Assembly: GCA_032718475.1 (NCBI GenBank)
Contig: JAUCBJ010008174.1
Coordinates: 1-33,036 of the forward strand
Direction: 5' to 3'
DNA length: 33,036 nucleotides
Source of the DNA: Nemertoderma westbladi
Taxonomy: Eukaryota > Animalia > Xenacoelomorpha
The position numbers and the translations under genes were made by a program. Shown in pieces: positions 857 to 25,130 of the stretch (positions are counted from its first letter, which is position 1; each line of letters starts with the position of its first letter). The notes under the pieces are model-generated. The model searched no databases, was not told where the DNA came from, and worked only from the letters and a program-made list of their open reading frames with translations.

Positions 857-3300
857 TTGGGTGATTGTCTAGGGAGTAGGCCTACTGGTAACTTTACTGT
901 TTTAAACATAAATGCCCAGTGTATTAGAAACAAACTTAATGAGTTTCGTGTCAGGGTTGCATTAATAAAACCGGATATAATTGGAGTGACTGAAACCTGG
1001 TTTGATAGTACTGTACAATATAGATGTGATAAGATACGATGGTGGTGGTGCTGCACTTTATATACGACAGTCTAATATGTTTTCAGTTGAAATAGTTAAC
1101 CCAGGCAATATCTGTTTTGATGATTTTATCTGTTTACGTATAAATCAGAATAATGGTCGTAATTTTACAGTTTGCTGTATTTACCGCTCTACAGCATCTT
1201 CACATGCTAATGACACAGCTTTGCATGTTTTAATTGACAAGTTACTTGTTAATTGTGGTTGTGAAATTTTGTTTACGGTGATTTTAATTTCCCTCATATA
1301 GATTGGGAAAATTTGTGTACATTACACGTTTTTGAAAACACAAGACTGGATAGAAACCATATTTTGAGTTCTAGATTAGACTTATTTTTTACTAAATCCA
1401 TTGATTCAATTTCTGATGTACGTGTACTCTGTCTTCTTGGGAAGTCTGACCATAGTGTGGTGCATGCGGTCTTGAATGTACACCGGGATATTAGTGAACC
1501 TACTCGGACGTACTTGAGATATGACAAGGGTGATTACGACAACTGGCGAACGTCCCTCCGTGACATTGACTGGGATGACCGTCTGGAAGGCAAGGACGCT
1601 GACCAGGCATGGACTGAACTCAAGACTGAATTGCTTAAGGGTACTAAACAATTCGTCCCCCGTAGATCTACAGTTAATGGATAGGATGAACCTTGGATGA
1701 CCAGTGCGACTATACATTGTATACGCAGAAAACAACTGCTTTTCCACCGCTGGCAACAACACCGCACCGATCGTAATTTCCAGCGATATGTATTATCTAG
1801 ACAGTCTACGGGACGCCACGTTCGTAATGCAAAAAATAATTTTGAAAGAAATGTTGCCGAGAAATGTAAACTAACCCTAAAGCTTTCTGGTCGTATGTAA
1901 ACTCCAAGAGGAAAACCAAATCAACTATTGGTCCCCTACGTACCAACAACAACGAAATAATTACGTCACCATATGGAATGTCAGAATTACTTAGTAAGAC
2001 ATATGCGTCCGTTTTTACCAAGCCTGACTCATCTGACCAACTGCATTCTGTTTCGTCCTTGCACACATACATTCCACCTACCACACAGATTGAACCCATT
2101 GTAAATGTAGACTTTTCTCTTGAACAGGTTCAGTATGAGCTGGATCACCTAAACGTAAACAAAGACCCTGGAGACGGTCTACATGGTAGAATATTGAAGG
2201 AACTGGCTAATGTTATTGCTGCTCCTTGTATGTCAATTTTTCAACTGTCGTTTGACTCTGGTGTTATTCCTTCAGATTGTCGAGAAGCAATAGTATCCCC
2301 GATCTTGAAGAGACAACCAAAACGTGTGCCAGATAATTATCGTCCTGTTTTCCTAACATGTATATTAGCGAAAGTGTGTGAGAAATTCATCCGGAATGCT
2401 CTAGTGAGTCACTTCGAGGATCACCAACTCTTTTCAGATGCTCAACATGGTGCACGTTCCCACAGATCTGTAGTAACACAGCTTCTGGAAGTGTTTGAAG
2501 ACCTATCTGATTACATTGACGATCCTGATTTCCAGGGTGCAGATATTGCATACCTAGACCTACGCAGAGCTTTTGACACAGTTTTCCACCCTCTACTGTT
2601 TCAGAAACTTCATGAGTATGGCGTACAAGGCCACTTAGCGCAGTGGATACAAGGTTTCCTGACAGATCGGTCCCAGTGTGTCAGGGTAGATGGTGTTCTC
2701 AGTACTCCTATAGCTGTTACCAGTGGTGTGCCCCAAGGAACTGTCACTGCAGCCTTTCTCTTTCTTGCTTTCGTCAATGATGTGCCTTCCATTGTTTCAT
2801 CCCTGTGCAAGATTTTCGTTGATGATACTAAACTCTACAGGGACATACTATGACGCAACTGACATACAGGCCCTACTAGACTAGTTGAATGGCGTAACCG
2901 CTGGAAATTGCAGTTCAATGATTCCAAGTGCAAGGTGATGCATCTACAGTAGGTTCTAGAAATCCCAAAGTTGCTTATGCAATGAATGGACAGTCACTTT
3001 CAACAACAGTAACCGAGAAACGTGATTTGGGTATAACATTCACATCAGACATGTCCTTCACAACTCACTGCTCACAGACAGCAGCCCGCGCCATGCGATT
3101 CGTCCATCTAATACGTGAACTTTTACCTTTTTAGAAACTCCAATGTTCACCCTGTTGAACAAATCCCATTTACGGCCTCTTCTCGAAAATGGTACAGTAG
3201 TCTGGTCACCGTACCTTCAGCATGATATTGACACCCTTGAACAAGTGCAACACCGTGCCACTTGCCTTGTCCCTTCTCTGACTGACCTGACATATGAAAA
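857..3300 (+). mobile_element. Decayed CR1-clade LINE ORF2 (APE endonuclease + reverse transcriptase), 3'-truncated
   Basis: APE motifs across frames: NAQCIRNK, PDIIGVTETWF, GGGAALYI, CIYRS, LDLFFT, SDHSVV. RT motifs: NYRPVFLT, QHGARSHRS, YLDLRRAFDTV, SGVPQG, FVDDTKLY, W.LQFNDSKCKVMH, RDLG, RPLLE..VVWSPY..DI..LEQVQHRAT. Many frameshifts and stops. Confidence 0.9.
1978..2853 (+). pseudogene. Largest open fragment of the CR1 reverse transcriptase domain
   Basis: 291-aa ORF running from the RT N-terminal blocks to FVDDTKLY, then frameshifted. Confidence 0.85.
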
Positions 3301-3840
3301 CTTTGGGGTGGTAGCTACCCCAAAATAATTTTTCATTACAATTGATTTTATTATGTACGTACTGTAAACTTCCCATTTTACATTCACTTTATAAATACTG
3401 TAGGCCTAAATACTATTCGTATATTTTTAATTATTACAATGTGATATTTTTATCTTCATATACGCTGATTAGCGTACTTTTACCAGTGTAGGCTATGCAG
3501 TATCTCTAAATTTAAAAGGTGCAATCATGAACTTATTGTTACTCTGGCGTCATTAATAACATAACATAACTATTTGACGTCGGTGTGCGCTATTACAGTA
3601 TTAAAGGTCAATAAGACTATATGAGCAATGAACTTGATTGCTTTTCAATATTATCCATAAAATCAACGAGAATTTGTCATTGATTGCTTATTAGTTGTAA
3701 CCCGGAATCAATGTGTGTGTAATATAATACAGTTTGTCAGAATGACTCAAATTTATTTATTTTGGAAATATTATTTTACGAGGTACCGGTACTACTTGGC
3801 TGTAAATACTGTAGGAACAATTTAAGAAATTATAACAAAT

Positions 3841-4234
3841 TATATTTATTTATTTATCAAGCCCGTTAACTAAAAAATCTTACGATAGGTGTGTTAGTAC
3901 CAAAATTATGCAAAAAACTAAAAAGCAACAAGACCTAGACGTTGCATGCAATCAGTGATCAGCTTACAGCAGCCAGCTGATCGGCAGGCCAGTCTTGCAA
4001 AAGCTTGAAATGTATTACATTCAAAAACGTAATCTCTACAATTCCTGGCTTGGCCTCCTGAGAATGCCTTCAGCTGCGGGGCGAAACCTACCGATCAGCT
4101 GGCTGCCGTCAGCTGATCACTGATTGCATGCAACGTCTAGGTCTTGTTGCTTCTTAGTTTTTTACATAACTTTGGTACTAACACACCTACCGTAAGGGTT
4201 TTTACTTAATGTGCTTGATAAATAAATAAATATA
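3841..4234. mobile_element. Foldback/MITE-like element with ~150-bp imperfect terminal inverted repeats
   Basis: 3841-3988 (TATATTTATTTATTTATCAAGC...GCTGATCGGCAGG) is the reverse complement of 4087-4234, with a ~100-bp spacer and no coding capacity. Confidence 0.8.
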
Positions 4235-4765
4235 AATTATAATTATTGGTTAATCAAGGATCTACTTCAATTTAAGAAATGTCCCGACTGGAGACCGCGA
4301 GAATTATAGTTATTTAATGTCAATCATCTATTGGGCACTGCGTGCGAAATTCTGCATTTACATTATATGTGGTCTGACTCAAACTTGGAGGGAAGGTAAC
4401 TTGGAATTTCCTAGCTTGAAAAATTGTCCTTTTTATAATTTTATTGTGAATATAATAGTAGTCAGAGCGTCTACTGGACTACAACATACCGGAAGTAAAT
4501 TATCTTTGGTAGCGCTTAGTTTGGTATAATTACAGTAATTATCCAACAATGCCTATAATTACAGTATGTTTTTAAATTGTTTTAACTTGTTGATGTTATT
4601 ATAATGCTGTTTTTAAAGTTTTTTTTACCTCAGGCCAACTAATATGTGTACTAATACCGGTGGATCAAACTATTAATTATTTGAATTTAGAACTGTGCGA
4701 GCGCATAGATCTACTAATATCGGCATGCTGCATTGTCGCTGCATTATATATATATTACATATATA

Positions 4766-5340
4766 TTAAGATTGCTGTGCCGGCTTGTCAACAAAATTGA
4801 GCCGCCACAACTCCATATCACCCATGACATTTTCTAGATCATCCGCATTTTCAAGGCCAGTGTCCTTTAAGATGCGCATCAAGAGAGTCATGGGCTGTCC
4901 ACCATGCTTATACGCTCCATAAGGGCGCCAAAGCACACGATTATGCACTGGCTAGTCCTCACGGCGAAAGCAAAGTCCTGCAAAGCGGAGGCGGTTCCGT
5001 TCAGGTGTGAAGCTAGGGGAGGTTAATTGAACACCTCCAATGTTATAGTGTCTGGTTGGAGATGTGTTCATTGTACTTGACACAATGAACCCGGCGCAGC
5101 ATTCTTGTGAAAGTGCCATCCAGTGATTTGGAGCCCTCTGCAGTTAGAGCCCACATGGACTCCCATAAGAGTACTGGTACTACTGCTGCCATAAATATTC
5201 AAACCTTAAGGTTCTGTTTTATTCTATGGGACTTCCAAATCCTGGGCAGACTATTTAACGCCTTCCCCTTACGTATCCGAAGGTCTTCACCTGACTTTCG
5301 GATCCATGGTCCCAAGTAGCAGAAGTCATCCACGTATTGA
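4766..5340 (-). mobile_element. RTE-type LINE 3' fragment (degenerate)
   Basis: Translates as VDDFCYLG..RIRKGKA..IWKS..LDGTFTRMLRR and VLWRP..DTGL..M.D..LWR, typical of the post-RT region of RTE ORF2. Confidence 0.7.
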
Positions 5341-5844
5341 ACCAAACCAAGCCTTCCCTCCTGGAGCTTATGAAGTGGATTATGAAATATAAAGATAATT
5401 ATGGGGAAATAAATTAGTGTGATTATTTACTGTGGTGTTGGATACGATTGGAATTTTGGTATCTTTGTCCCGAAGAGTTTTAACTTGCGAGGGTCGATAG
5501 GTTGAGAATATTAGATGGTTTGTTGACAATAGAAGCAATAGATCATTGACTCGCGAACCTCGCGATTTTCTTTCAATTATATAATATTTCTATAAAATTT
5601 TCTAGAACTAAAATATTTCTTCTAGAACATTATTTAAATTAATTGTTAATTTCGTACACGTTAGATACAAAAAACAGTAGTAAATAACAGTACAGCGTAC
5701 ATACAAAGTTACATAATTAAGCACAAATAAAGTAGGGTGGGTAAGTAGATGAACTGTTACAATAATGATAATGTTAATGTTAACCGCCACATTTACTGAG
5801 ATACAATATGACTCAATCAGTTTACTAATTCGTAAATCACGCTA

Positions 5845-7267
5845 CTATTCTGTACATATATAATGCAAAATATTTTCCAATTCATCCTGCTCAAAACCTG
5901 GTACTTCCAAGGTATATCTACAATCAACTAATTCCCTGCACATATTTATGTAAGACGAATTATCTCCGAACCATTTAAAATTATAACATTCCTTTACATT
6001 TGGAAATCTGGCTACCGGGGAATTAACAATAGATGTTGATATATAATTTAGATTTGCACCGCTCACTGACCTACAATCAAAAATATTAAGATTACCTAAA
6101 AATTGTATAGATTGTTTTGGGCTATTTAGAATAGATTTAGTAATAAACTGACAAACCTACCAAAAATCATTGACTTTGGGTATGGGAAATCTACTAAACC
6201 CTCCACAAAGAATCTATGAGTATTGTAAGGCAACCCCCAAACTGATCTAACATTAATATTCCATGAATTAAGTATTTTCAAAAAATTATGTGACGAAAAA
6301 TCCCATAGTGAACTACCATAAAAACTAGTTGCATAAATTCTTTGCAAATTACATAAACAAGACGGATGTGAGAAGCTAAATTCTTGCTTAAGACATTTAA
6401 GTTTTCCAATAAATTTACCGCGCTTTAATTGCATGTCGAAATTGAAACTACCTGAATAGTGCAGAGTGTTGCCTAAATATGTCGCTTGCTTAACCCATGG
6501 TAATGTAACTTCATTTACTGTAACGTTTGTAGATGGTTTAGACCAAGAACGATTAAAGGGTATACATTTCGATTTACTTATATCTGGATTAGTATTGGTG
6601 CTAAATACCATATTAAAATCCTTCGAAAATAATTCGCAATCCTTGAGCATATGCTGCAAACCATGAACTGATGGACACAGCAGAAGTATGTCGTCGGCAT
6701 ATACAAATATACCGAAAAAGCGAGACCCAATGTGACAACCAACTCGAGATTTTCTGAGACGGACGATTAACGTGTTAATAACAATACAGAATAAAAATGG
6801 GCTCGCCACCGAACCCTGCCTACAGCCGTTAGTGATGGAAAATTTGCGCGAGTTAGCGGAACCCCACTTGACATTACAACATTGTTCCCTGTATGTGAAC
6901 ATTAATAACCTTAAAAATAAAGGCGAGAACCCCTTCTTTAGAAGCTCCATAAACAACTTAACCCATTCAACCAGGTCAAAGGCCCGACTCAAATCTAAAA
7001 GGCAACCAAATACTGGCGTATTGAACCGTCTGTAGAACCCGAGAACTTCGGAGACCGCCCATGTGCAACTTGTCGTACTAGACTGCTTCTGAAACCCAAA
7101 TTGTAAATCATCTACGGCCAAGCAATGACCTTGGGAGATTAGCATCACCCATTCTAGAACTTTGAGCACTAAGGATGCGATTGCAATAGCTCTGTAATTG
7201 CTGGAGGTTGAAATATCACCGAGTTTGTCCTTTATGAGCGGAACAAGAGAAGCTGATAATAGGAACT
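5845..7267 (-). pseudogene. 5'-truncated non-LTR retrotransposon RT (RTEX/Proto2-like; clade uncertain)
   Basis: LVPLIKDK..NYRAIAIAS, LQFGFQ, LLDLSRAFDLV, NGCRQGSVASPFLF, GCHIG, YADDILLL. A 1-nt deletion at ~6150 splits it into ORFs 6126-7169 and 5845-6066. Confidence 0.85.
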
Positions 7268-7312
7268 AAAAGGATAAAAGGATAATAATAGGATTTTTCG
7301 TCACATAATTTT

Positions 7313-7750
7313 TTGAAAATACTTAATTCATGGAATATTAATGTTAGATCAGTTTGGGGGTTGCCTTACAATACTCATAGATTCTTTGTGGAGGGTTTAG
7401 TAGATTTCCCATACCCAAAGTCAATGATTTTTGGTAGGTTTGTACAGTTTATTACTAAATCTATTCTAAATAGCCCAAAACAATCTATACAATTTTTAGG
7501 TAATCTTAATATTTTTGATTGTAGGTCAGTGAGCGGTGCAAATCTAAATTATATATCAACATCTATTGTTAATTCCCCGGTAGCCAGATTTCCAAATGTA
7601 AAGGAATGTTATAATTTTAAATGGTTCGGAGATAATTCGTCTTACATAAATATGTGCAGGGAATTAGTTGATTGTAGATATACCTTGGAAGTACCAGGTT
7701 TTGAGCAGGATGAATTGGAAAATATTTTGCATTATATATGTACAGAATAG
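7313..7750 (+). pseudogene. Duplicated C-terminal part of the 5845-7267 LINE ORF2, here without the frameshift
   Basis: 145-aa ORF joining the end of ORF 6126-7169 to ORF 5845-6066. Confidence 0.85.
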
Positions 7751-8256
7751 TAGCGTGATTTACGAATTAGTAAACTGATTGAGTCATATTGTATCTCAGT
7801 AAATGTGGCGGTTAACATTAACATTATCATTATTGTAACAGTTCATCTACTACTACCCACCCTACTTTATTTGTGCTTAATTATGTAACTTTGTATGTAC
7901 GCTGTACTGTTATTTACTACTGTTTTTTGTATCTAACGTGTACGAAATTAACAATTAATTTAAATAATGTTCTAGAAGAAATATTTTAGTTCTAGAAAAT
8001 TTTATAGAAATATTATATAATTGAAAGAAAATCGCGAGGTTCGCGAGTCAATGATCTATTGCTTCTATTGTCAACAAACCATCTAATATTCTCAACCTAT
8101 CGACCCTCGCAAGTTAAAACTCTTCGGGACAAAGATACCAAAATTCCAATCGTATCCAACACCACAGTAAATAATCACACTAATTTATTTCCCCATAATT
8201 ATCTTTATATTTCATAATCCACTTCATAAGCTCCAGGAGGGAAGGCTTGGTTTGGT

Positions 8257-8831
8257 TCAATACGTGGATGACTTCTGCTACTTGGGACCATGGATCCGAA
8301 AGTCAGGTGAAGACCTTCGGATACGTAAGGGGAAGGCGTTAAATAGTCTGCCCAGGATTTGGAAGTCCCATAGAATAAAACAGAACCTTAAGGTTTGAAT
8401 ATTTATGGCAGCAGTAGTACCAGTACTCTTATGGGAGTCCATGTGGGCTCTAACTGCAGAGGGCTCCAAATCACTGGATGGCACTTTCACAAGAATGCTG
8501 CGCCGGGTTCATTGTGTCAAGTACAATGAACACATCTCCAACCAGACACTATAACATTGGAGGTGTTCAATTAACCTCCCCTAGCTTCACACCTGAACGG
8601 AACCGCCTCCGCTTTGCAGGACTTTGCTTTCGCCGTGAGGACTAGCCAGTGCATAATCGTGTGCTTTGGCGCCCTTATGGAGCGTATAAGCATGGTGGAC
8701 AGCCCATGACTCTCTTGATGCGCATCTTAAAGGACACTGGCCTTGAAAATGCGGATGATCTAGAAAATGTCATGGGTGATATGGAGTTGTGGCGGCTCAA
8801 TTTTGTTGACAAGCCGGCACAGCAATCTTAA
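8257..8831 (+). mobile_element. RTE-type LINE 3' fragment (inverted copy of 4766-5340)
   Basis: Mirror copy with an identical 60-aa ORF. Confidence 0.7.
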
Positions 8832-8917
8832 TATATATGTAATATTTATATAATGCAGCGACAATGCAGCATGCCGATATTAGTAGATCTATGCGCTCGC
8901 ACAGTTCTAAATTCAAA

Positions 8918-8922
8918 TAATT
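8918..8922. repeat. Target-site duplication TAATT (left copy)
   Basis: TAATT flanks both ends (8918-8922 and 21925-21929). The paralogous empty site at 4675-4679 has a single copy. Confidence 0.95.
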
Positions 8923-9457
8923 TGTGACGGGATCCACGGAGGATCCCGGTTTATCCGGTTTTCAATCTACGCGTCCCCGCCGTGTGTGTGAAAGGTAAAG
9001 AGTTATTGATCGCTGTATATAGTTCTCCGGGTATAATAGTATAAGATATAATATTGGATACACAAATGGAATGTGAAGACAGAGACGGAGACGGAGACGA
9101 TAATTGAAGTTCCGGTACTACCCTAGCTAAACTGACTTACTATAAGTGAATGAAATGATTACTGTACTGATAATATATATTGCACAGTTGGCCGTGTTAC
9201 ATTACTCAACCGATGCCTTCCCCCCATTGGCTAATAACCCTGTTGTCGCCCTTTGCCTCCCCTGGAGGGTTTCCCTTCACTCTTGTTACTCTCTCTCTCT
9301 CTCAGGGGTGTAACCCCTGACCCTTATTGTGTGTGTGTGTGCTTTCTCCTTCCCACTTTGTTGGGGTGACACGAGGTTGATTGCTCACCCTCGTGTTCCC
9401 CAATATTGCTTAACGGCTTACTTTATGGGGTGGTTAGCGGAATTGAATAAGCTAACA
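8923..9457 (-). repeat. 3' LTR (535 bp)
   Basis: Direct repeat of 21401-21924. Minus strand reads TGTTAGC...GTCACA and is preceded by the PPT. Confidence 0.97.
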
Positions 9458-9466
9458 CTCCCCCCC
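9458..9466 (-). other. Polypurine tract
   Basis: GGGGGGGAG immediately upstream of the 3' LTR on the minus strand. Confidence 0.85.
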
Positions 9467-10013
9467 ATGCTATCTTCCTGGTGAGAAGATAGCATCCACC
9501 TCTAGTGCGCTACAATTCCGCTGGATCCCGATCTAGTATCGGGTGTGGGGTGGAACTATTTTCTTTCGGAGCCGGCTTTCCAGGCCACTCCCTATGGGTA
9601 TGATAATGCTACCCCGTTTGCCTGGCGTCCCGTGTTGGGCCGATCGTGCGCTCCTCCCACACGACTTTTGTTTCCCCAACACTTTCGCCACTCCAACTCT
9701 ACTCTGTTCACACCCTGACCCTCCTCTACTTTTCCTCACCTCGGCTCTAACTCTCGGGCTTCCCTGTCCCTCACTCAGCCTCTTATTCCTCCCCCCCCCC
9801 ACACTTGAATTGCGCTCGCACTCTCTCTACACTCCGCACTCTCTCCGCACTACAACTCAACCTCTAACTCGACCACTCACTCCCGACGAGTTTCACCCCC
9901 CCCCCCCTTTGTACCGTCGCACTCAAGAAGCGTGATGTCGTCCAATGTCTCGTCCGTGGTAGTATTATAGTCCATTGGTCCCCAGTCCCTTCCAGGCATG
10001 TTACACCGAAGTC

Positions 10014-11345
10014 TTAGTTCGTTCCACCAGCCTTTGGGAACCACCTCAAGTCTTTCCCTTTGTCGTCCTCCTCCCTGGGTCGTTTCCTGGTCACTGCCGC
10101 TCCTCTGGTCTTGTCTGCTTTCTGGCTTCGGACTCTCGCCGCCACCTCCTTACTGATCCCGGTCGTTGACTCCTTGGGTGCCGGCGTTATTAGCTCCCGG
10201 TATCGCTTCGCGGGTGGCCCCTCCGAGTGGCCCTGTTGTCTCCCCCTGGTGGCGTCCCATAGGATCATCTTCATTGCCCGCGGCACATGCTCCGCCAAGA
10301 AATCCCTAAACTCTCCTCTACTCTGTGGCGTCCACCTATCCAAATACCTCTGCGTATTTATCACTCCGGCATATGATGCCGCCGTCGCCACTTCCTGGTA
10401 GGTAAACGGAAGCCTCCGTTTGATAATCTCCATGTGAGCCTCCTGATTGATGTTAAAGAAGCCCCACTGGAACTCCTGGGCCTTCATACGTTGCCGAGTC
10501 ATCGCCCCGATGTCGGCCCACTCCTCGAAGATCCTAAACTTCTCTTCGTCGTCCATCCAGTCGCACTGGCGTCCGTAATGTCCCCGAAAGTTACACTTCA
10601 AACATCGGTTATGCAACCGTGGACACGCCCCCATCCTGTGGCTCGACTCGCGGCAATAGAGACAACTAGTCCCTTTCTGGAACCGGTACAAACAGCTCCT
10701 TTCCTGGTGGGTCTGTCTCCCACAGTAGTCGCAGCCGAGTACCAATGTCTCCCGCCCCACGTCGTCTTTCGTCCCAAGCGATCTCCGCGGTCTGTGGAGT
10801 CGCTGGTAGGCGAACTTCCGGACGTTAGTGTCCCTATCTACGTCGATCTCCTCGCCCCTCTCGGGCATCGTCTCCCCGAATACTACCCGTGGTGTCGTCC
10901 CCGGTTGCTCGCCCAACCTGATAGTGCTCCCCGCGAAATCCATCGCCGGCTCCTCGTGCACCCAGGCCCGCTTGCCGGGTCTATCCCAGAAGGCCCTCGC
11001 CCCACTGGCCGTCACCACCCTCCCGCCAACCCAGTCCGTGTCCGAGTGGCCGATCCTCCCGATGGGCGGCATCTCTCCGAACTCGTCGTCGTCTTCGTCC
11101 TCCTCTGGCAGTGGCTCCAACCCCGGTATCCCGGTGGACCCACTATGTCCCTTCCCGCCTTGGCTCTCGCCCGTGGCTCTCCATCCCTCTAGCTCCCCTA
11201 GCCTCCTTAGCGGCTGGGCTGGTCGCCCTCGGCGCCCGCTGGTATGGGCGTCGCTTGCAATCCCGACGTTGACTGTTTCAGTAATCCCACCGTCCATCCC
11301 AGTTCTCGCCCTAGAGACTCCCCCGAACTCCCTGACGAAGTCCAA
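10014..11345 (-). CDS. Extra ORF (ORF3), main part: protein with three CX2CX4HX4C zinc knuckles
   Basis: 443-aa frame with CDYCGRQTHQERSC, CLYCRESSHRMGAC and CLKCNFRGHYGRQC (10563-10733), and an acidic patch EEDEDDDE. No signal peptide or TM segment evident. May continue in another frame to ~9880. Confidence 0.75.
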   Translation of the reverse strand: MDFVREFGGVSRARTGMDGGITETVNVGIASDAHTSGRRGRPAQPLRRLGELEGWRATGESQGGKGHSGSTGIPGLEPLPEEDEDDDEFGEMPPIGRIGHSDTDWVGGRVVTASGARAFWDRPGKRAWVHEEPAMDFAGSTIRLGEQPGTTPRVVFGETMPERGEEIDVDRDTNVRKFAYQRLHRPRRSLGTKDDVGRETLVLGCDYCGRQTHQERSCLYRFQKGTSCLYCRESSHRMGACPRLHNRCLKCNFRGHYGRQCDWMDDEEKFRIFEEWADIGAMTRQRMKAQEFQWGFFNINQEAHMEIIKRRLPFTYQEVATAASYAGVINTQRYLDRWTPQSRGEFRDFLAEHVPRAMKMILWDATRGRQQGHSEGPPAKRYRELITPAPKESTTGISKEVAARVRSQKADKTRGAAVTRKRPREEDDKGKDLRWFPKAGGTN

Positions 11346-11355
11346 CGAAGTTCGT

Positions 11356-11802
11356 CTAAGCCCGCCTGTTCCTCGAAGCCATAGCTCTGTGCCCTAGCTT
11401 CCTCCTCCCTTTCCTCTGCTTCTCTCCGATCCTCTCCTTGAACCCTCCTCGTCTTCCACGGTCCCTTCGTCGTCTAGGATCATGTATCCTCCCCTGCTGA
11501 CGGACTCTACGAACCTCTTCCAATCTTTCCTCGGTGACTCCGAACTTCGCCTCGTCTCCATTCACCACGTAATGGAAATGCTCGAAGATCGCGTTGTCCA
11601 GCGACCGCGTCCCATAGGTCCCGACCAGCCGCTGTTCGTGCACCTCCCTGAAGTGGTCCTGTAGCACTCGCGCTGCGTGACCCTTCTCTAACCACTCGTA
11701 GAATCCCCTCGTCCTCTCTTCCGGAAGCCTCTTGGTGAAATCCACCAGTATCTCCTTTCCTCCTAGCTCCGCCTTTCTCTTTCGCACAAGTTTGCTTGCC
11801 AT
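11356..11802 (-). CDS. Extra ORF (ORF3), N-terminal part; probably joined to 10014-11345 across a frameshift
   Basis: ATG at 11802 in GAGATGG context, MASKLVRKRKAE..., with an Arg-rich RRRRDRGRRGG stretch. The downstream frame is open from 11393, so the two frames overlap. Confidence 0.6.
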   Translation of the reverse strand: MASKLVRKRKAELGGKEILVDFTKRLPEERTRGFYEWLEKGHAARVLQDHFREVHEQRLVGTYGTRSLDNAIFEHFHYVVNGDEAKFGVTEERLEEVRRVRQQGRIHDPRRRRDRGRRGGFKERIGEKQRKGRRKLGHRAMASRNRRA

Positions 11803-12293
11803 CTCGAACTCTGCCCGATCGCTCACCTTTTGGGTGGTGCCTTACCAAGGCGCTATAGGATGAGTGATAGGTTTAGATGGTTTATTTCAGTTCGATGGCC
11901 TATCTCTCTCTGAATTTCTGAGTTATTGCCTATTCTTTACACTACTTGATTATGAAGCTACTAAATGTACCCTAAATCGCAATTTTGTCCGTTACTTTAA
12001 TTATATTCCAGAATTTCCTTTTCCACTGTTACCATAATTTGCTAATTTTCAGCCCTATTTTTATTTTATTTTAATTTAATTTAATTCTACTGTCCTACTA
12101 CTTACTATTGCCTATGGATTATTCTATTTTATAATCCACATTCTGGCCTATTCTGTGGGCCTGTGCAGTACAACAGTATGTGTCGCGTGGCCACACGATT
12201 TATCCAGCTGTACTCATATGCCCCCCTCTCGCTACTCACTACTGACTAATATCTATACTATATATACCCTTCTACCTCTATCTCTTACTAACT

Positions 12294-12662
12294 GGTACTA
12301 CGTACCCTCTTACTAACCTCTAACTCTCTCTAACTAACTAACGGTACTACGTACCCTCTAACTCTTACTCTCTCTAACTAACGGTACTACATACCCTCTT
12401 ACTAACCTCTAACTCTCTCTAACTAACCAACGGTACTACGTACCCTCTAACTCTTACTCTCTCTAACTAACGGTACTACGTACCCTCTTACTACTCTAAC
12501 TCCACTAACTAACGGTACTATGTACCCTCTTACTACTCTAACTCCACTAAGTAACGGTACTACGTACCCTCTTACTACTCTAACTCCACTAACTAACTAA
12601 CGGTACTACGTACCCTCTTACTAACCTCTAACTCCGCTAACTAACTAACGGTACTACATACC
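12294..12662. repeat. Array of 9 GGTAC-TAC-GTACC stem-loop units separated by CT/AAC-rich linkers
   Basis: Units at 12294, 12343, 12383, 12432, 12472, 12514, 12556, 12602 and 12650; spacing 40-49 bp. Confidence 0.9.
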
Positions 12663-12856
12663 CTCTTACTCTTACTATCTAACTTCTATCTGCCTACTTA
12701 CTGCGTACCTAGTTATGTACTATTATTTACTAATAGTATGTACTATTTATTTTATTTTTTATTTTATTTTATGTGTGGGAAGGGCGTCTCGCCCTCAATC
12801 CCACCCCCCTCAGTCCAAAACTTGGACGACTAAACTCTACTAAACTCCACTCTAAC

Positions 12857-14760
12857 TCAAGGTGCCCCCTCTAGCAGACAGCACTTCCCTACAGCCCTCC
12901 TGTAGGTCTTCCTGTCTTTCGCACCTATTTTGCCACCTATACGCACTTCTACCGATCGGACTCTTCCGTCCTCATCGGAGTAAGTGCCTACAACTCTCGC
13001 CAACCGCCACTGGTTGTTGATGATGGTATCATCCGTGACGATCACGAGATCACCCTCTCTCAACTCTCTGTTCGTTTTCCTCCACTTACTTCTTCTGTGA
13101 AGCGTGGGTAGGTATTCCTCAACCCATCTCCTCCAATACTCTGCGCTTATCGCCTTAGCGACTTTCCAACTCTGGCGGGAGTGTATGTCATCTGGGTCTA
13201 TACCCCGCATATCGATGGTCGCTGGCCTTTCCATTAAAAAATGGCTGGGCGTCAGCACGTCTAGTGATTCAGGGTCATCATTCTCTGGGTATAGCGCTCT
13301 GCTATTAATGATACCCTCATACTTCGCAAGTACTGTCCTTAGCACATCCTCCGTAACCATATGGGTGTTCATCAACTTCGTCATCAGATGCTTCGAACTA
13401 CCCACGAGTCTCTCGACGCATCCTAGGGTATGCGGTGCATACGGCGTCCTCCTCTCCCACTTTACTTGTCGTCGCCTCATGGCTGCCCTGACTTCCTCTC
13501 CTTCCAGGATATCCAAGGCCTCTGCCATCTCGTTCTCCGCCCCCACAAAGTTGGTCCCGTTGTCGGAGTATATCACTGCGATCATCCCACCTTTGCGGTC
13601 TCTAAACCTTTCTAAGGCATTAATGAATGCCGATGCGGTTGGATCTTGGGCGAGTTCTATCCCTACCGCCCGCGTGTTATTACATACGAAGATAATACCG
13701 TAGCGTTTCTCCGTGTGCCGCATCACATTGATCTTTATCGGCCCGAACATGTCCACACCGCAATGCGTAAATGGCGGGTCGTGTTGTCTTACCCTACTCG
13801 CCGGTAGTGGTGCCATCTCCTGTATGGCTCGCTCCTTCTTCGCTTGTCGACAGCTCTGGCACTGCCCCACTACCACCTTTACCTTCTTCCTCAACTGTTT
13901 GACCCAAAAGGTCCTCCTTATCTCCGTGAGGGTTCGGTTGGTGCCCCCGTGCAATATCGACTTGTGGGAGTCCCAGATAATCTGGTGGACTATCGGCGAT
14001 CCTATGGGGATGATGATGGGCTTTGGTGGTACGACGATACTGTTGTTGTATCCCACCCTAGAGTTCATTACTAGGATCGCGTCGTCATTAAGTTGTGGTG
14101 ACAGCATGATGAGCTCGCTGTCCCGCCAGAGATGCAGTTGTTTACCGACGCGTTCCACCTCGTCGCCGTAGTTCTTCCTCTGCTCGTAGCGGATGACTGC
14201 TTTGGCCGCTCCTTCCAGATCTATTGTCATTCTAATCTTCACGTCTTTGCCAACTCCCCTGAGGAAATTCCCGAAGGCTCTCCAGTACGCCACTAATTTC
14301 TTGGTCTTGTACCAGCTAGAACTGTAGCTAAGGAGTTTATCTGTCGGATTATCGCACAGTTCTCCTGATTTTGGTTGCACGCCCCTAATCTCCCTCACCA
14401 TCTGGGAGTATATCTCTTCTCCCTCTGAATCTCCCTCTTCTCCTTCTGACACTACTTCTCCTGAGCCCGGGTCCACCTTTCTCATCGGCGGCCAGGCCTC
14501 CTTATCGCTCAGAAACTGTGGCCCGTGTTGCCACAATACTTCCTTCTTCAAGAAAGTGTGGCGTACTACACCCCTCGATAACAAGTCCGCTGGGTTCTCG
14601 TCCGTTGGGCAGTAGTGCCACCTTTCCAGTTCTGTGGTCGCCCTTATTTCGTCCACTCTGTTCGCGACGAATATAGGGTATCTCGTCCTTTCGTTATGTA
14701 GCCAACCAAGCACTACCATGGAATCCGTCCAGTAGTGTGTCTCCACTATGTTGGGATAGC
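12857..14760 (-). pseudogene. pol: pol: RNase H C-terminus, integrase (HHCC + DDE) and DUF5641-like C-terminus
   Basis: WTDSMVVLGWL, CPTDENPADLLSRG, H..HGG...CQSC, CGVDMFGP, YSDNGTNFVGA, GCVERLV, LTPSHFL, W..EYLPTL..RSKW, GDLVIV, WRLARVV (within ORF 12857-15034). Confidence 0.95.
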
Positions 14761-16317
14761 ATCCATTAGGTAGGCTGTAGCCCCAACTCCTAGTCTTGCA
14801 GCTGTCAATTCTAATTTGGGAACCGATGCTGAATCTGGTGGCGTTGACTTCGCCTTGCTGAAGGCGAGTCTGGGCTTGTGAGCCCCCTCTCGTTGTACTA
14901 AATAGAGTGCCGCTCCGTATGCCTCTAACGACGCATTGGAGAACATGTGTAGGTCCAGATTCGTCATGTCCCCATCCGGGAAATACACTCGTGGCATGCT
15001 GTATGTTCCCATTTGCTCCAGGCTCTCTGTCCACTTATACCACTGCTTTCTAATCTCTTCCGGTATCTCTGCGTCCCACTCGTTCTTTAGTTTGTATACT
15101 CTCTTGAGTATCTGTTTCCCGGTGACTAATAGTGGGGATGCTAGGCCTAGGGGATCGTATATCCTTGCTATGTACGACACATAGCCCCTCTTTGTGTGGA
15201 TATCTGCGCCCTCCTGACTCAACTGGTACTTCAGTTCATCCGTCTCTCTGTTCCACACGATTCCCAGTGCCTTCTGTTGAGACTCTATTCTCTTGTTCGC
15301 CATGTCCTGCCCCTTGGCTGTTGTGGGATTATCCATGGTAGATCCTGGTCTCTCATCTTTTATCGCCTCAATAAATTCCTTCGAACTGGATTGGAATTTG
15401 GTTAGGTTGAAGCCGGATCCTTTAAGGATGTCGCGAACCTCGCGCCCTGTGTCCAGTAGCTCCTTAACCATATTTCCAGACTCCATCCCGTCGTCTACGT
15501 AGAAGCCGCGTCGAATCATATCGACGGCTCTAGTACTGTATTTATCTTCCTTTCCCTTTACTGTGTCTCTTACGGCCATAGTCGTCGTGAATGAAGACGA
15601 CTTGGCTCCCATATTCTGTACTATCATCTTGTACATCGGTATTGTCGACGGTTCCACGTCGCCGTTGTACCATAAGAAGCGTTGACTGTGGCTATCCTCT
15701 TCCGTCACACGGACTTGGTTGAACATGCCTTCTATGTCACAGGTGAAGGCGTGTTTCCCATTCCTGAATCTGAGTAGGACCTCTATCCCTGAGTTGTATA
15801 TGTTGGGACCCTCTAGCAGATAGTCGTTTAGGCATTTCCCGTCGGTCTTTGCCGATGCGTCCACTACCATCCGCAGTTTACCTTTCTTCGGATCTAAAGC
15901 CATGTGGAGTGGCAGGTAATATGTCCTGTCCGTGTTCGGTTCGTCGACCGGTAACTCCACGGCCCATCCCTTCTTGACGTACTTTCTGATTGTCTTATGA
16001 ATGTAGTCATTCTTTTCGGGGCTCCGCTTTAATGTCTGTTTCAACTTACGAAGCCTCGTGAGTACCATTCCTTTATTATCGGGCAGTGGTAGCTTTGTTA
16101 GCTTCCATACCATTCCTATGGTATACCGCCCCTCGTCGCATCTCATAGACTCCTCTACGCTCTGCTGAGCCTGCTTGTCTTCCACCGAGGTCCCGACCCC
16201 GGTTTCCTTTAGTCCCTCAAAATCCTGCCTGAGCAGTCTCTTGAGCTGTTCCTCCGCTCTCTCATCCCCCATTTCTTGCATAGTTCCTGCGAACATGCAT
16301 CCTGATGTCTCCGACAT
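14746..16317 (-). pseudogene. pol: pol: Pao-type reverse transcriptase and RNase H N-terminus
   Basis: YYLPLH, KLRMVVDASA, LNDYLLEGPN, LLRFR, DIEGMFNQV, QRFLW, FYVDD, IYDPLG, LHMFSNAS..AYGA, PKLEL. Frameshift at ~14755. Confidence 0.95.
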
Positions 16318-16370
16318 CCTAAATGGTATCTTACTCTTAATTGGCCGCTTAATCTTACTCTTAATTACTC

Positions 16371-16800
16371 TTAGTGGGCCGTCGGGCAGTCCATTCCTAC
16401 TATGATGGATACCTTCCTAACGTCCACCTCTGGGATTGAGAAGTCGATATCATCCAGGAATTTATATTGTTCGACCTCGATGTTGGTTGGCTGCCTGGCA
16501 TTGATATTTATTGACTCTATCACTTGGATGGGGTCGATGGTCGCCCCATAGTCGCATCCCGGTGCCACCGCTGCTATCGCGCACCGCCCGGTCCTCATCT
16601 CCAGGACCTCATCTTTGCTAGAGATTGTTGTTACCGCCATTCTACTTGGCCTCGTTCTCAACCCTATCTCTTCGGCCACCCAATTTTCGATTAATGTGAA
16701 GGCAGCTCCACTATCGACCAGCATCAGCGTGGTCACTGATCAATTGCCTTCTCCAATCACTCGCACTGGTACCACCCCAAGTAGCACCGTTCCTCTCTTC
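16371..16800 (-). pseudogene. Aspartic protease domain
   Basis: VLLGVVPVRV..(in-frame TGA at 16740-16742)..TLMLVDSGAAFTLI...VSIIVGMDCP. Confidence 0.85.
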
Positions 16801-18989
16801 TTCGCCCCTACTGTGCTCGTTGCCATCATTTGACCTTTGCTTTGACCGAACTTGATTGGCGTCTCCTTGCATTGCCTAGCTCTATGTCCACTCATCACAC
16901 ATCGTGAGCAGATCTCATTTCTCGCTGGTATTCTACCTGATCTTCCCTGGGTAGCGCTTGCCAGTACCTGCAGTTCATGGTTTGATGAAGCGCATTTGTA
17001 TGTAGCTGGCATTTGCTCTTTGGGTCATAGCCGTCCTTATACAGTGCATTGCGTATCGCAGTTGCATTTGTACCAAAGTCCCTACTATTCTTATTGTTTG
17101 GGTTCGGCCTACTGGGCGTACTGGGGTTATATTTATTTGTGTTGTTATTTTTCCCCTGTCCGCTCCATGATGTGGTCTTACCCCCGGCTACCTGTGGACT
17201 TGCAGTCCCCTGCGTCGCTGCGTATGGCAGTGATTGCCTGAGCTTTGGTAATGCGTTTGACGTGTTGTGTTCTGGTTTCAGTCTATGGTAATCGGTTCTT
17301 GGTCCCTTTCCCAGGCTGTCCTCACTATAGACTGGGTCGGTTATTAATTCGGCTTCGTAGTTTAAGAAGCTCGACATTTCTTCTAAACTTGGTTCCGCAC
17401 CCTTCCTATCTCGAGTGGAGAAAGCGATTTTTCTCCACTTGTTGCTCAGCCACATCGGTAGTGCCTGCGCTATCGTGGTGATGTTGTTGGACGCGTTGAG
17501 TTCGTATGGCGCGTCTAGCGTCTTTAGCACGATTAGCGCCTTCTCGACCTTGTTCGCGAACGTCTTAATGCTAATGGGATTATCCTTTAGGCCACCCGAT
17601 GTTATGCCCCTCAGGGTTTGCTGGATGATCTTGGCCGGGTGCCCGTATTCCCTGTCCAGTGCCCGCCATGCCGTCGTGAAGCCGCCCTCTATGCCCTGGT
17701 ATTGCCTCACGATGTCGTATGCTGGGCCTCCTGTATATACTTGCAGATATTTTAGGCACTCTGCCTGCGTCAAGTTCTTTGTTAGTATTTCGTTACTATA
17801 CATGCGCCGAAACTTCAGATATTCTTCCGGCCTACTCCCATCGAATTTAAACGGTTCCACGGGTGGTAACTCGATCCTAGTTTTTAACGCATCGATCAAC
17901 GTGGCCATCCCCATCGCCTGCGCTTCCAATGGGTTCGATGGATGTTGTATAGTTTCTCCTGTTGGGTGTGGTCCGTCCGTCCTATTTTCTACCTTCCTCT
18001 GGCTTGGTTATATGATTGGGGGTAGCGGCCCCCTCCATATTTCTGTGTCGCATGATCTATTTTCATCCAAGGGTCTCGTTGTTCTTGCTCCTATCGGGGT
18101 ATATTGTTGATATTGTGATGGGGGAATGTCACCCTGCCCCCCCCCCCCCCACCGGTATGTTTGGTATTGGGGTTGATGTTAATATATTGGGGCCCATGCA
18201 CCTATCCGTAATAATTCCCCCCTCCCCTGGGTATATGTTATGTCCTTGCATGCTGTAGTCATACTGCTGTACTGGTACCGGTATAGGCCTATCAGCTTCT
18301 GGCCTACCTGCCGGTATGTACTCCGTGACTTCCGGGATTAATCCTGTCCTATCGCCTACATTATTCCTGCCAGCATGGCCTATGGTATGTGCAGTAAGGC
18401 CTACAGTATGTCCCACAGTCTGTATGTGTCGCTCGGGATCGAAGTTTAATCTTCTCGAATAATCCTCCCCGCGGCTACCATATTCTCGATCGCTAGCTAT
18501 ATCCCGCCGGGAAGTTTCTCTTCGACCCCCTCCACTGCTCTCATCCTCGTGCCGGTACATCGCATACCCCTCTATTGGCACATAGTGCGCCTCGTCAGGT
18601 CGCGCCTCTCTGGGACGACGGCAATCTCCCGAAGTTCAACCCCACCGACTCTCTGTTCCCATCTCGACTATCGATGGCTCGCTATCCATCCTCGCTCTCC
18701 TATCGTTCGCGGTGATACTTCTCCTACTATCTTCTCTTCTTCTCTTTTCAGTGCAGTATTCCCGCTCGTGAGATCTCTCGTCAACCTCCCGGTTAAACTC
18801 CACTGTTCTTCTTCCCTCTTCTGATCGGGCTCGACGCTTCGTCTGCCCTCTCGCGACGTCAACCTGCCTCTCTCTGCTCGATCGCATGCCGCTGGGGATA
18901 CCCGCAATCCCCCTATTACTCTCCGTCGCCGGGTGTTGCGGTTTACCTAGCTCGGCCCGCGCATTATCCGCAGACGCCTGTGGGACACT

Positions 18990-19205
18990 CTCTGCCCCCC
19001 CCTCTCGCTACTAATCTGTCATGGTGGGGCGCCTGTAGCCTCCCCCCACCCACCGCATCTAACTTCACCATCTCCTACCACACTTCTGCGTCCCTCCTGT
19101 CAGACATTCTCCACCCCCCTTCTCTCGCCACTAATCTTCCATGGTGGGGTGCCCGTAGCCCCCCCCCCCCACTTGCCACATCTTACTTCACTATCTCTTA
19201 CTTCG
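18990..19205. repeat. ~120-bp diverged tandem duplication in gag
   Basis: ATGGTGGGG anchor at 19021 and 19141 with similar flanks. Confidence 0.75.
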
Positions 19206-19259
19206 TCTCTACACCACTCTCTAGTCGACGCACTGTCTCTACTACGGCTGGGTCTATTC

Positions 19260-19425
19260 ACCCCCGCCTCTCTCTCTACTACTGCGTGGCCTACCAGGCC
19301 CACCTCGGGTTGGCTCAACCCCGCTACCTCCTGCCTACCAACTACGTGGCCTACCAGGCCGCCGTCGGGTTGGCTTAACCCCGCCACTTCCTGCCTACTA
19401 ACTACGTGGCCTACCAGGCCCCCGT
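19260..19425. repeat. 60-bp tandem repeat (~2.7 copies) encoding LVGHVV.RQEVAGLSQPDGG
   Basis: CGTGGCCTACCAGGCC at 19285, 19345 and 19405. Confidence 0.85.
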
Positions 19426-19571
19426 CTGCCAGGTTGTGTATGTCCGACACGTTCACATTAATAGCACCACTGTGATTGTCACCTGTTAAACCAATTTGGT
19501 CCTCTAGTTCACCTAAATTATTTTGTGCACCAAAATTAGAAACATAATTATTTTGTTCGTTCGAGATAAGA

Positions 19572-19670
19572 TTATTTGAATTATTTTGCGTGACTTACAT
19601 TATTTGAGTTATTTTGCGTAATTACGTTATTTGAGTTATTTTGCATAATTACGTTATTTGAGTTATTTTG
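19572..19670. repeat. 27-bp tandem repeat encoding QNNSNNVI(T/M) on the minus strand
   Basis: TTATTTGAGTTATTTTG at 19600, 19627 and 19654, with a variant at ~19572. Confidence 0.8.
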
Positions 19671-21024
19671 TAAATTCGAATTCGTATTATTATTTAAATT
19701 ATTTGGATTATTTGTATTTAAATTTGAGTTACTACTACTGGTAAAATATTTCCTGGAATAAAGGTTTGGCTAGAATTATCCAATACGGTACTATTAATAT
19801 TAACGTCGTCTACTGTATTATTATTATTACCCCCCCCCCCCCCCTGCCCGTACAGTCACACCAGTCTCGGGTCTGTCGTGCGGTCCCTGTAAGTGGGGTA
19901 TTAATAAATGTATCCACGGCCCTTGGCTCCTCGAAAGCACCCGAGCCAGCGTCACTCTCTGACAACCCCATCTGCGCCAGTTCCAGTTTGCACTTCTGTC
20001 TAGTTTGGTATTGCATAAGCCCGCTAAGGCAAGTATGTAAATCATCCCGCACACGCTTCCCCTCTGCCACTCTTTCCTTATTCTCCCGCGCGTTCTGCTC
20101 GGCCAATTCCGTCTCTCTCCTAACTCTCTCCATTCGTCTCACCTCCCTCGCCACCTCACGCTCTCTACGTCCCGCCTCGTGCTCTTTACGTTCACTTTGC
20201 TCTCTCGCCTCACCCTCCTTACGTTCACTTTCCTCTCTCGCCTCACGCTCTTCTTGTTCCTTCCTCCCTATTTCCTCGCACTCCCTAAAGCTTCTCGCGG
20301 CCTTCTCGGCCCTCTCTCCGGTCTCTCTAACCAGTTCCATTTCTTTCTCTAATAGCGCTCTCCCCTCCTCTAACTGTCTCTCTACTTCTCTCTGGTCTTG
20401 CGCTATCAGATCGAGATGGTACACCGCATTTATTTCCCTCACCCGTCTTTCTTTTGCGGAGGATGTAGCAGACTTATCGGTTGTGACGGATTCCCTCCGC
20501 CTTCCCGTCCTACTAACTTTCCCCCGCCCCCCAGAACTTCCTCCGACCGACGAGACCGAATCTTCGGGGTTAACCTCGGATTCGCCCTCCTGCGGTCTCC
20601 TCCAACCCACTAATTTTACTCCCCGGGCATCGACTAAGTATGGCCCTATGTACACTACACTAGGCTGTATACCCCTACACTCCCATAGATCACACAGTTC
20701 GCTTGCAACCTCTCTCGCTCTCCCCTCGGCTAGTTCTCTCTGTCCAAAGCGCATTAGGTAGTTAAAGTGTTCGTTCGACTCACCTAGTCGCCTTTTCAAC
20801 TTCACCTGATCTATCTTGGCCCCTCCTTTGGTCTCTTTGAGCAGTTTCCGGGTCGCGTTGTAGGCCCGTCGAAGTCGATCGCTGACCCCGATGTCCTCGT
20901 CGCCGACGTCTCCTCTATCTCTCCGGGTCCGGCGTCGTACCGGCGGCCCCACCGTCGCCATTCCGGTGGACCCACGGTCCACCGGCGACATCGGCGACAT
21001 CGGCACGTCGACCGCCGTCATGTG

Positions 21025-21157
21025 TCGACTCGCCTCTCTCTCCTCCCGACTCGTCTCTCCTTTCTCTCGACTCGTCTCTCCTTTCTCTCGACTCGTCTCT
21101 CCTTTCTCTCGACTCGTCTCTCCTTTCGCTCGACTCGTCTCTCCTTTCTCTCGACTC
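21025..21157. repeat. 21-bp tandem repeat (~6 copies) at the 5' end of gag
   Basis: (TCGACTCGTCTCTCCTTTCTC)n, read as SREKGET or ESRERRD on the minus strand. Confidence 0.9.
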
Positions 21158-21400
21158 ATCCTCTGGTTCCAGACAGCCCCCCTCATCCTGAATTGCCGGA
21201 TCGCCCGTTGTGGATGGCTCCTGTGTCGTGGGCCGATACCGTCTAGTCGCGGCCTCGCGGATCGTTAGATCGCCGTCCGGGGTCCGCGGCGGTGTTGTTT
21301 CTCCCGTTCGACTCATCTTGTACTTTAGATTGGTGGCTGGTAGTCAGTTTCGTGTAACTGTCAGTATCTATTGCTTAGGGCAGCAGTTGGTTTCAATTAC

Positions 21401-21924
21401 TGTGACGGGATCCCGGTTTATCCGGTTTTCAATCTATGCGTCCCCGCCATGTGTGTGAAAGGTAAAGAGTTATTGATCGCTGTATATAGTTCTCCGGGTA
21501 TAATAGTACAAGATATAATATTGGATACACAAATGGAATGTGAAGACAGAGACGGAGACGGAGACGATAATTGAAGTTCCGGTACTACCCTAGCTAAACT
21601 GACTTACTATAAGTGAATGAAATGATTACTGTACTGATAATATATATTGCACGGTTGGCCGTGTTACATTACTCAACCGATGCCTTCCCCCCATTGGCTA
21701 ATAACCCTGTTGTCGCCCTTTGCCTCCCCTGGAGGGTTTCCCTTCACTCTTGTTACTATCTCTCTCTCTCAGGGGTGTAACCCCTGACCCTTATTGTGTG
21801 TGTGTGTGCTTTCTCCTTCCCACTTTGTTGGGGAGACACGAGGTTGATTGCTCACCCTCGTGTTCCCCAATATTGCTTAACGGCTTACTTTATGGGGTGG
21901 TTAGCGGAATTGAATAAGCTAACA
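21401..21924 (-). repeat. 5' LTR (524 bp)
   Basis: Direct repeat of 8923-9457 with about 6 substitutions, an 11-bp indel and small microsatellite indels. Confidence 0.97.
21611..21697 (-). promoter_or_regulatory. Putative LTR Pol II promoter (CCAAT, TATA, Inr-like)
   Basis: Minus strand: CCAAT (21697-21693), TATATATT (~21646-21639) and TCATTTCATTC about 20-30 nt downstream of the TATA. Confidence 0.45.
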
Positions 21925-22370
21925 TAATTAATAGTTTGATCCACCGGTATTAGTACACATATTAGTTGGCTTGAGGTAAAAAAAACTTTAAAAACAGCAT
22001 TATAATAACATCAACAAGTTAAAATAATTTAAAAACATACTGTAATTATAGGCATTGTTGGATAATTACTGTAATTATACCAAACTAAGCGCTACCAAAG
22101 ATAATTTACTTCCGGTATGTTGTAGTCCAGTAGACGCTCTGACTACTATTATATTCACAATAAAATTATAAAAAAGACAATTTTTCAAGCTATGAAATTC
22201 CAAGTTACGTTCCCTCCAAGTTTGAGTCAGACCACATATAATGTAAATGTAGAATTTTGCACGCAGTGTCCAAGAGATGATTGACATTAAATAACTATAA
22301 TTCTCGCGGTCTCCAGTCGGGACATTTCTTAAATTGAAGTAGATCCTTGATTAACCAATAATTATAATTC

Positions 22371-24700: not shown

Positions 24701-25130
24701 TTTACGAAAACGTCTGATTTTTTGTTTGTACGTAGGTATCACTTGTCTGGATCCGACCGAAAAAAGAAATTTTCGAAAAAATGTACTGGGGTGGTTATAT
24801 TGCAGCACCAAAATTACAAGTAGTGCACAATTTTCACAAAATTTGAAAGTTACATTTTCGGCTAATTATTTTTCAATACAGGTTTTTTGGGGTGCAAAAT
24901 ACATTGGAAAATATTTAAAAATGATATGATTACTATAAATGGCTGTTTAGTCCTCTCTGCGTAGGAAAAACAAAGTAACCAGCACTTTTCAGTTAGAACA
25001 CAAAATTTTTAATTCACTTATACGATGCTATAAATTCACATTTTCAGGTTTTCGAGGGCGCTGATTCTAATGGAATACATTTCTAATATGCCAGATCATT
25101 GCTACTTGTATTTTTCGGCGTAATTTAGCA

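Follow-up and report, generated by a model that had tools for sequence, protein, structure and literature searches.

A BEL/Pao element of Nemertoderma westbladi with a third gene of three CCHC knuckles, a probable nuclease-free member of a conserved accessory gene family

The window, namely the whole stretch of 33,036 nucleotides analysed here (contig JAUCBJ010008174.1 of the Nemertoderma westbladi assembly GCA_032718475.1), contains a BEL/Pao retrotransposon with a third open reading frame, ORF3, behind the integrase. ORF3 and its relatives in other elements almost certainly constitute a genuine family of BEL accessory genes kept by selection, and the best reading of the sequences is that ORF3 would be an old BEL/Pao gene for an accessory RNA-binding protein, ancestrally a knuckle-guided RNA trimmer. 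The full proposal, that the copy in the window is an exonuclease-less member of this conserved third-gene family, likely made separately from Gag-Pol and binding and managing the element RNA, is given an even chance.

Regarding the element, it has TG...CA LTRs, a 5-bp target duplication, a polypurine tract (PPT) and the gag-PR-RT-RH-IN order of BEL/Pao elements, with the Pfam domains arranged as DUF1759, aspartic protease, RVT_1, Peptidase_A17, integrase and DUF5641 (Table 1). The two LTRs are 98.8% alike (6 mismatches in 517 aligned columns), and a 12-bp duplication near 8929-8940 is found in the 3' LTR and not in the 5' one. The element sits inside one arm of a near-perfect inverted repeat of ~3.6 kb (2681-6306 versus 7288-8922 plus 21925-23874), which flanks an RT-bearing ORF (6126-7265); the matching arm, with one TAATT only, represents the empty site. 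This is a young but defective insertion, defective because its gag-pol is split over several frames. The stretch after the 5' LTR (21330-21400) has no canonical TGG start of a primer-binding site in this copy, and it may be a private rearrangement, since the depth is near single-copy at the two listed positions within it, 21363 and 21372; TGG-type primer sites occur in two relatives, L013 and L023. Contigs from three DNA runs reach every one of the 30 bins into which the element was divided, those of ORF3 among them, and yield tens of thousands of records of mixed identity; the sibling copies are observed as short contigs, and the record counts give no copy number. The element belongs to a family of many copies in which the ORF3 region is present, so that the absence of ORF3 from sibling copies, envisaged in the initial annotation, was not borne out.

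Table 1. Positions of the element and of its parts in the window
Feature	Position	Strand	Basis
BEL/Pao element, 13,002 bp	8923-21924	-	LTR pair, TSD and Pfam domain order
Target-site duplication TAATT, left	8918..8922	none	sequence
Target-site duplication TAATT, right	21925..21929	none	sequence
3' LTR, TG...CA	8923..9457	-	alignment with 5' LTR
PPT	9458..9466	-	sequence
ORF3, 596 codons from ATG to stop	10014..11802	-	sequence; longest open part 11393-10014
Conserved module, three CCHC knuckles and helical part	10335..10742	-	profile match E 4e-40, conservation, structure model
Low-complexity Gly/Arg/acidic linker	10800..11540	-	sequence; no homologue aligned N-terminal of query residue 177
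N-terminal segment, start ATG and RKRK	11541..11802	-	no significant relative, no exonuclease domain
Tandem repeats of 40-48 bp, pol-ORF3 spacer	12290..12691	none	repeat scan
RNase H end and integrase (H2C2, rve, DUF5641)	12857..15034	-	Pfam
Reverse transcriptase and Peptidase_A17 (Pao) region	14746..16416	-	Pfam, E 3.8e-38
Aspartic protease fragment	16371..16739	-	Pfam
Gag capsid region (DUF1759)	16895..18007	-	Pfam; knuckles at 17011 and 16910, the latter across a frameshift
5' LTR	21401..21924	-	LTR alignment

An AT-rich, tandem-repeat spacer separates the end of the integrase (12857) from the ATG of ORF3 (11802), which has a strong context, with G at -3 and +4, in keeping with its earlier description as Kozak-like. 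The initial annotation had drawn a sense-strand coding region of about 600 codons between the integrase and the PPT: location and length hold (596 codons), but the frame is not open throughout, being interrupted twice in this copy, first by a frameshift close to 11540 and then by an in-frame stop codon (11394-11396), and it ends at 10014 instead of 9880. The traits reported for the protein were all located, these being RKRK (residues 7-10), Arg/Gly-rich stretches, the acidic patch EEDEDDDE and three CX2CX4HX4C knuckles, starting at 10733, 10664 and 10604 and followed by FEEWAD..TRQR..WGFF. Two or more knuckles appeared in none of 100,000 residue shuffles of the longest open piece (11393-10014, 459 aa); this piece is basic as predicted, with a pI of 9.2. 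ORF3 also lacks a signal peptide or TM helix, again as stated before, its highest 19-residue hydropathy being 0.49, and env-like traits are absent, with neither a TM anchor nor an env Pfam match in the ORFs of the window. The RKRK-type basic motif is non-specific, and it occurs in 49 of 49 ORF3 frames.

This copy of ORF3 probably yields no full protein. Sibling contigs deviate from it at the first break (one contig in run X5, loose ends in run X2), and some siblings have deletions in the N-terminal half, at 11427-11785 (three runs) and of a few bases at 11212. Just upstream of the ATG, at ~11836-11855, a short hairpin (GCCTT/AAGGC) is accompanied by words that resemble splice acceptors and donors; the hairpin word recurs in loose ends of diverged sibling contigs.

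As for the relatives of ORF3, word-indexed searches gave nothing useful (one of them covered proteins of 1550-4425 aa only), and this initial blank was a sensitivity artefact, because exhaustive phmmer (cut-off E ≤ 0.001) matched ORF3 to 76 protein clusters, the best with an E of 1e-18 and 35% identity. The best-matching stretches of all 76 fall within residues 177-437 of the query and comprise the knuckles and, in most clusters, the helical part, recognizable by its FE-AD-G-T-R-WG-F and Y-L motifs; a few of the weakest matches cover the knuckles only. In the alignment of this module, the ligands C58 (76/76), H53 (75/75) and C65 (74/75) are near-invariant, and so are, after the knuckles, G97 (73/75), T100 (71/75) and G112 (67/75). 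These CX2CX4HX4C arrays with conserved ligands are knuckles of the retroviral type, and a profile of 21 homologues, built with the window excluded, matches the window's module at E 4e-40. The module has no Pfam match. Its best PDB match by profile is TbRND, the RNase D of Trypanosoma brucei (PDB 7C42; E 1.3e-6, knuckles only), and weak matches to nucleocapsid proteins were found too; in an Atlas look-alike search with a full-length relative, TbRND ranked first at 0.86, which is to be taken as a lead only. The AlphaFold2 model of the module, made from the alignment of homologues, had a pLDDT of 80.6 and a pTM of 0.71, compared to a pLDDT of 36.5 for the single-sequence prediction without alignment. 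Foldseek of this model gave no match at E ≤ 0.001, which does not imply that the fold is new, and the best hit by VIA-align had a Z of 2.8 (rmsd 2.7, 65 aligned); a homodimer prediction, made without the alignment, scored 0.00 and was uninformative.

The genomic surroundings of the relatives were retrieved with a search motif present in 58 of the 76 proteins. At least 120 metagenome stretches match it in the 26 of 64 parts scanned (~300 estimated), and flanks were taken for 80; 12 more stretches are from prokaryote genomes or MAG bins. Among the matches listed, the module profile confirmed 124 of 132 motif loci, and the eight that failed were dropped as chance matches. No relative turned up in viral contigs, and of 511 stretches from a protein-based scan of metagenomes none was confirmed. 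The loci derive mostly from a few assembly series and are not independent host samples. A BEL integrase lies upstream on the same strand in 32 of the 34 confirmed loci with more than 5 kb of upstream sequence, among the matches listed, and an opposite-strand pol in none; the initial annotation had proposed to check whether homologues always sit downstream of BEL integrases. The two exceptions are L022, with decayed remnants, and L012, without BEL pol in the 10 kb upstream. With more than 3 kb upstream, the integrase was present in 37 of 46 loci, and a wider query added L056 and L063. Of 26 neighbouring ORFs scanned, 23 had DUF5641 (20 of them also Peptidase_A17) and three had no match.

At many loci, an open gag-pol of 2,000-2,400 aa is followed by an ORF3 frame of 640-1,590 codons. 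L023 has both LTRs (797 bp, 95% alike), and in L013 a primer site and a purine tract enclose gag-pol-ORF3; some terminal repeat was found in 8 of 29 long loci, several of these repeats being assembly overlaps. Six loci (L123, L124, L127, L128, L130 and L132) are BEL/Pao elements or ORF3 in bacterial MAG bins, likely through eukaryotic contamination. In L124, the BEL gag-pol frame (3542-9538, minus strand) includes a deoxynucleoside kinase domain at residues 583-778, in frame and upstream of the RT (PF01712, E 6e-46); it is an unusual nucleotide-supply capture, and the same element has an exonuclease-knuckle ORF3.

The inheritance of the module was compared with that of the integrase in the 29 elements where both are intact. 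The two trees share four multi-member groups and most subgroups, and the pairwise identities correlate (rho 0.67, reached in 0 of 5000 permutations) over 28-88% integrase identity; the deep branches are unresolved in both trees, and the window stands on a long branch, its integrase being 28-38% and its module 21-38% identical to those of the other elements. Module and integrase thus descend together, which does not imply that they co-evolve. Regarding selection, dN/dS was calculated from 106 overlapping module pairs of at least 60% identity: pairs at 83-97% identity gave values of 0.02-0.15, and more distant pairs gave up to 0.5 as silent sites saturate; the pair L021/L033 has 48 silent and 6 replacement changes. 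The corresponding integrase values were mostly saturated and were not used. These ratios indicate strong purifying selection on the module among the relatives. In the window's own family, selection is weakly suggested by the 18 silent changes among 40 listed differences, versus 11.9 expected (P 0.024; 190 further rows exist, and two of those listed are in the module).

These data weigh on the view that ORF3 is a nested insert (a LINE ORF1 or a second gag), neutral captured DNA or a diverged env. Such an origin could account for the broken copy in the window, for an N-terminal half without relatives and for the module of L012 away from any BEL pol; it is nonetheless very improbable, given that 32 of 34 loci agree in slot and strand, and given the shared descent with the integrase, a dN/dS far below 1, the lack of a TM segment and the absence of env, capsid and LINE ORF1 Pfam matches from the window ORFs and from the ORF3s of 34 relatives, none of which reached the Pfam cut-off. 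Neither the nested insertion nor the neutral evolution that the initial annotation had allowed for found support, and its central claim, an extra non-env gene belonging to the BEL/Pao element, is sustained by slot, co-descent and purifying selection.

The module is preceded by at least 220 residues in 31 of the 76 proteins, and 22 of these 31 have an N-terminal domain in common; seven of the 22 served as profile seeds. A profile of 21 such proteins matched EXD2 (E 5e-11), Egalitarian (1e-3) and WRN (1e-2), and a nuclease-only profile from 18 loci matched EXD2 at E 8e-12 with the D-x-E of ExoI in register. EXD2 aligns with the domain from ExoI to ExoIII, and the matches to Egalitarian and WRN are weaker; by these profiles, most relatives fuse the module to an EXD2-like DEDD 3'-5' exonuclease domain. 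EXD2, Egalitarian, WRN-exo and EXD1 differ from them in being cellular genes without the knuckle module, and the DEDDy family includes catalytically dead RNA adaptors too.

Among the 49 ORF3 frames open for at least 300 residues before the motif, 42 match the nuclease profile, and the four catalytic acids of these domains, expected in the motifs D-x-E (ExoI), D (ExoII) and Y/H-x3-D (ExoIII), are all kept in 26 (DEDD, with Y or H), reduced to two or three in 3, and to one at most in 13. In one integrase clade of 10 members, all 9 that were scored are acid-lost forms, and L015 is a further case. As for the seven frames without a match, the N-termini of L047, L059 and L061 differ from the nuclease, L035 is by eye a divergent nuclease, and the remaining three are truncated, by a frameshift or by the end of the contig. 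L047, L059 and L061 form with L082 a subgroup in which another conserved N-terminal region replaces the nuclease. In the window, the two nuclease profiles match none of the frames, and the ORF3 there is thus one of at least two nuclease-free forms. Two candidate identities for its N-terminal segment were discarded: as an exonuclease remnant, its faint match was equalled by 119 of 2000 shuffles, and as the alternative N-terminus of L047, L059 and L061 it had no match. The N-terminal part of the family thus appears in three states, with the DEDD acids intact, with the acids lost, or with the domain absent. Separately, L005, L015 and L051 have very long ORF3 frames (1,330-1,590 aa), with 500-900 extra residues N-terminal of the nuclease.

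Based on these states, the core job of ORF3 is likely RNA binding, with trimming as an optional addition, since no form has lost the module whereas catalysis or the entire nuclease can go; the constant presence of the module is in part by design, as the loci were collected via the module and nuclease-only elements would escape. In the mechanism proposed, a spliced or subgenomic RNA would serve for the translation of ORF3 from a start codon of its own, and the three-knuckle-plus-helix module would grip the full-length element RNA and protect it or route it to export or packaging. The EXD2-like nuclease of the ancestral form would shorten the bound RNA at its 3' end or tail, much as the knuckles of TbRND pass RNA on to the exonuclease of that enzyme. 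That ORF3 is translated separately, from an RNA that is subgenomic or spliced, is likely, because each of the 31 loci measured has an in-frame ATG 2-1254 nt past the pol stop; this ATG often has a strong context and lies 30-50 residues ahead of the nuclease. In 6 of the 31 loci (L007, L029, L034, L069, L076 and L128), ORF3 begins to be open immediately after the pol stop and in the same frame, the stop being TGA-C in five and TAA-G in one, and translational read-through is possible.

This arrangement also touches on a particle-borne helper of reverse transcription, that is a second, nucleocapsid-like chaperone whose nuclease trims the primer or proofreads cDNA ends; a second nucleocapsid was one of the options in the initial annotation. 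Three knuckles of the retroviral type, the weak profile matches to nucleocapsid proteins, the strict linkage to pol and the possible read-through fusion to the integrase in 6 of 31 loci would suit it, but at most loci ORF3 has an independent frame and its own ATG, and an entire clade with long open pol frames lost the catalytic acids, which argues against a need for proofreading. In addition, Gag retains its own knuckles: the initial annotation had credited the window's Gag with only two atypical ones and proposed a nucleocapsid function split between Gag and ORF3, but one knuckle is canonical (16910) and the other a CxxH variant (17011), ~100 nt apart as in related BEL Gags, and ordinary Gag knuckles are present in 15 of 15 ORF3-bearing relatives checked. 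A split nucleocapsid is not supported by these counts, and the helper role is rather improbable.

The main rival of the RNA-binding accessory gene is a counter-silencing factor; the initial annotation had likewise named an anti-silencing role, next to a Rev/Rex-like one. The module of such a factor would bind piRNA or siRNA precursors or uridylated ends, the DEDD domain trimming or destroying them and the nuclease-dead or nuclease-less forms sequestering them. Counter-defence genes often evolve fast and are family-specific, hence the slow evolution of the module, and its co-descent with pol over 28-88% integrase identity, count against this role, and slow, clade-wide conservation would be more in line with a role in core replication than with an arms race. 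In its favour, catalytic loss is compatible with sequestering, and the architecture resembles that of TbRND, the top look-alike mentioned above, for which the available part of PMC7797062 gives guide-RNA depletion on overexpression and a preference for U-rich RNA; moreover, two factors of piRNA biogenesis, Maelstrom and EXD1, derive from DEDD enzymes and are inactive, as pointed out by Rodriguez et al. (PMC5408684). On balance, counter-silencing is possible yet doubtful. Similarly tentative is an evolutionary version of it, in which a deep BEL/Pao clade would have had, since its origin, an RNase D-like counter-defence gene for a knuckle-guided exonuclease, stripping decay-marking tails from the element RNA or destroying host small RNAs; this gene would have been reduced time and again, first to a nuclease-dead and later to a nuclease-free RNA-binding suppressor, the latter being the window's ORF3.

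Among known systems, TbRND is like the relatives in having an N-terminal DEDD exonuclease and C-terminal CCHC knuckles, but it is a cellular guide-RNA trimmer with four fingers, whereas the family has three knuckles and a nuclease closer to EXD2; the two likely represent a parallel architecture. Juno and Vesta, LTR retrotransposons from bdelloid rotifers, are Ty3/gypsy-type elements and not BEL/Pao. The zinc-finger domain of TbRND gives RNA binding and raises cleavage, according to the part of PMC7797062 available. Like the relatives described here, rotifer Juno, Vesta and Athena/Terminons have a non-env third ORF with a DEDD 3'-5' exonuclease behind pol; these DEDDy ORF3s are family-specific and were acquired at least twice, whereas the present gene has been passed down through a deep clade of BEL elements, and the words 'CCHC' and 'zinc' do not occur in the available text of that paper, whereas the nuclease of the present family is joined to a module of three knuckles (PMC5408684; rotifer DEDDy ORF3s are cited also in the accessible portion of PMC6338049). 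The window's ORF3, without nuclease, departs from the rotifer proteins, the likeness being one of description and not of sequence comparison.

A non-env gene in the ORF3 slot can be required for the export of genomic RNA, as is CERV of C. elegans Cer1 in the available text of PMC10309623. Cer1 is a Gypsy element, and CERV is spliced to gag exons and has G-like and ring-forming M domains and a C4-type loop; it has no CCHC array, and 'exonuclease' does not occur in that text. Set apart by its described domains, CERV is best taken as an analogy of position and possible role and not as a homologue. The env-like ORF3s of BEL/Pao elements (roo, F-type; mosquito, chuvirus-like gB) share slot and superfamily with the present gene but are membrane fusogens, unlike the soluble, basic, Cys/His-rich protein predicted here; in the part of PMC13524379 available, the additions given for BEL elements are all envelope-like. 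In the literature outside subscription papers, Repbase and Dfam, the available part of PMC8220671 included, no BEL/Pao element was found reported whose ORF3 has a DEDD nuclease or an array of knuckles; those papers or database entries may already hold such elements.

The family almost certainly represents a second, old type of third gene in BEL/Pao besides the envelopes, about as conserved as the integrase and built on a protein module without a match in Pfam or fold libraries. The natural series of intact, acid-lost and absent domains, placed on the tree of the elements, opens the function of non-env ORF3s and of element-borne DEDD nucleases to testing, and intact natural ORF3s, for example those of L036, L046 and L013, are at hand for biochemistry.

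Elsewhere in the window, long, repeat-rich and partly coiled-coil-like frames with 21-, 33- and 60-bp repeats lie upstream of the Gag capsid (18100-21340), and the three frames scanned from this stretch had no Pfam match. A tandem repeat of three units of ~163 bp spans 25123-25511, and two more CCHC knuckles with BEL-Gag-like spacing, likely a fragment of another element, are found on the plus strand at 31212-31360.
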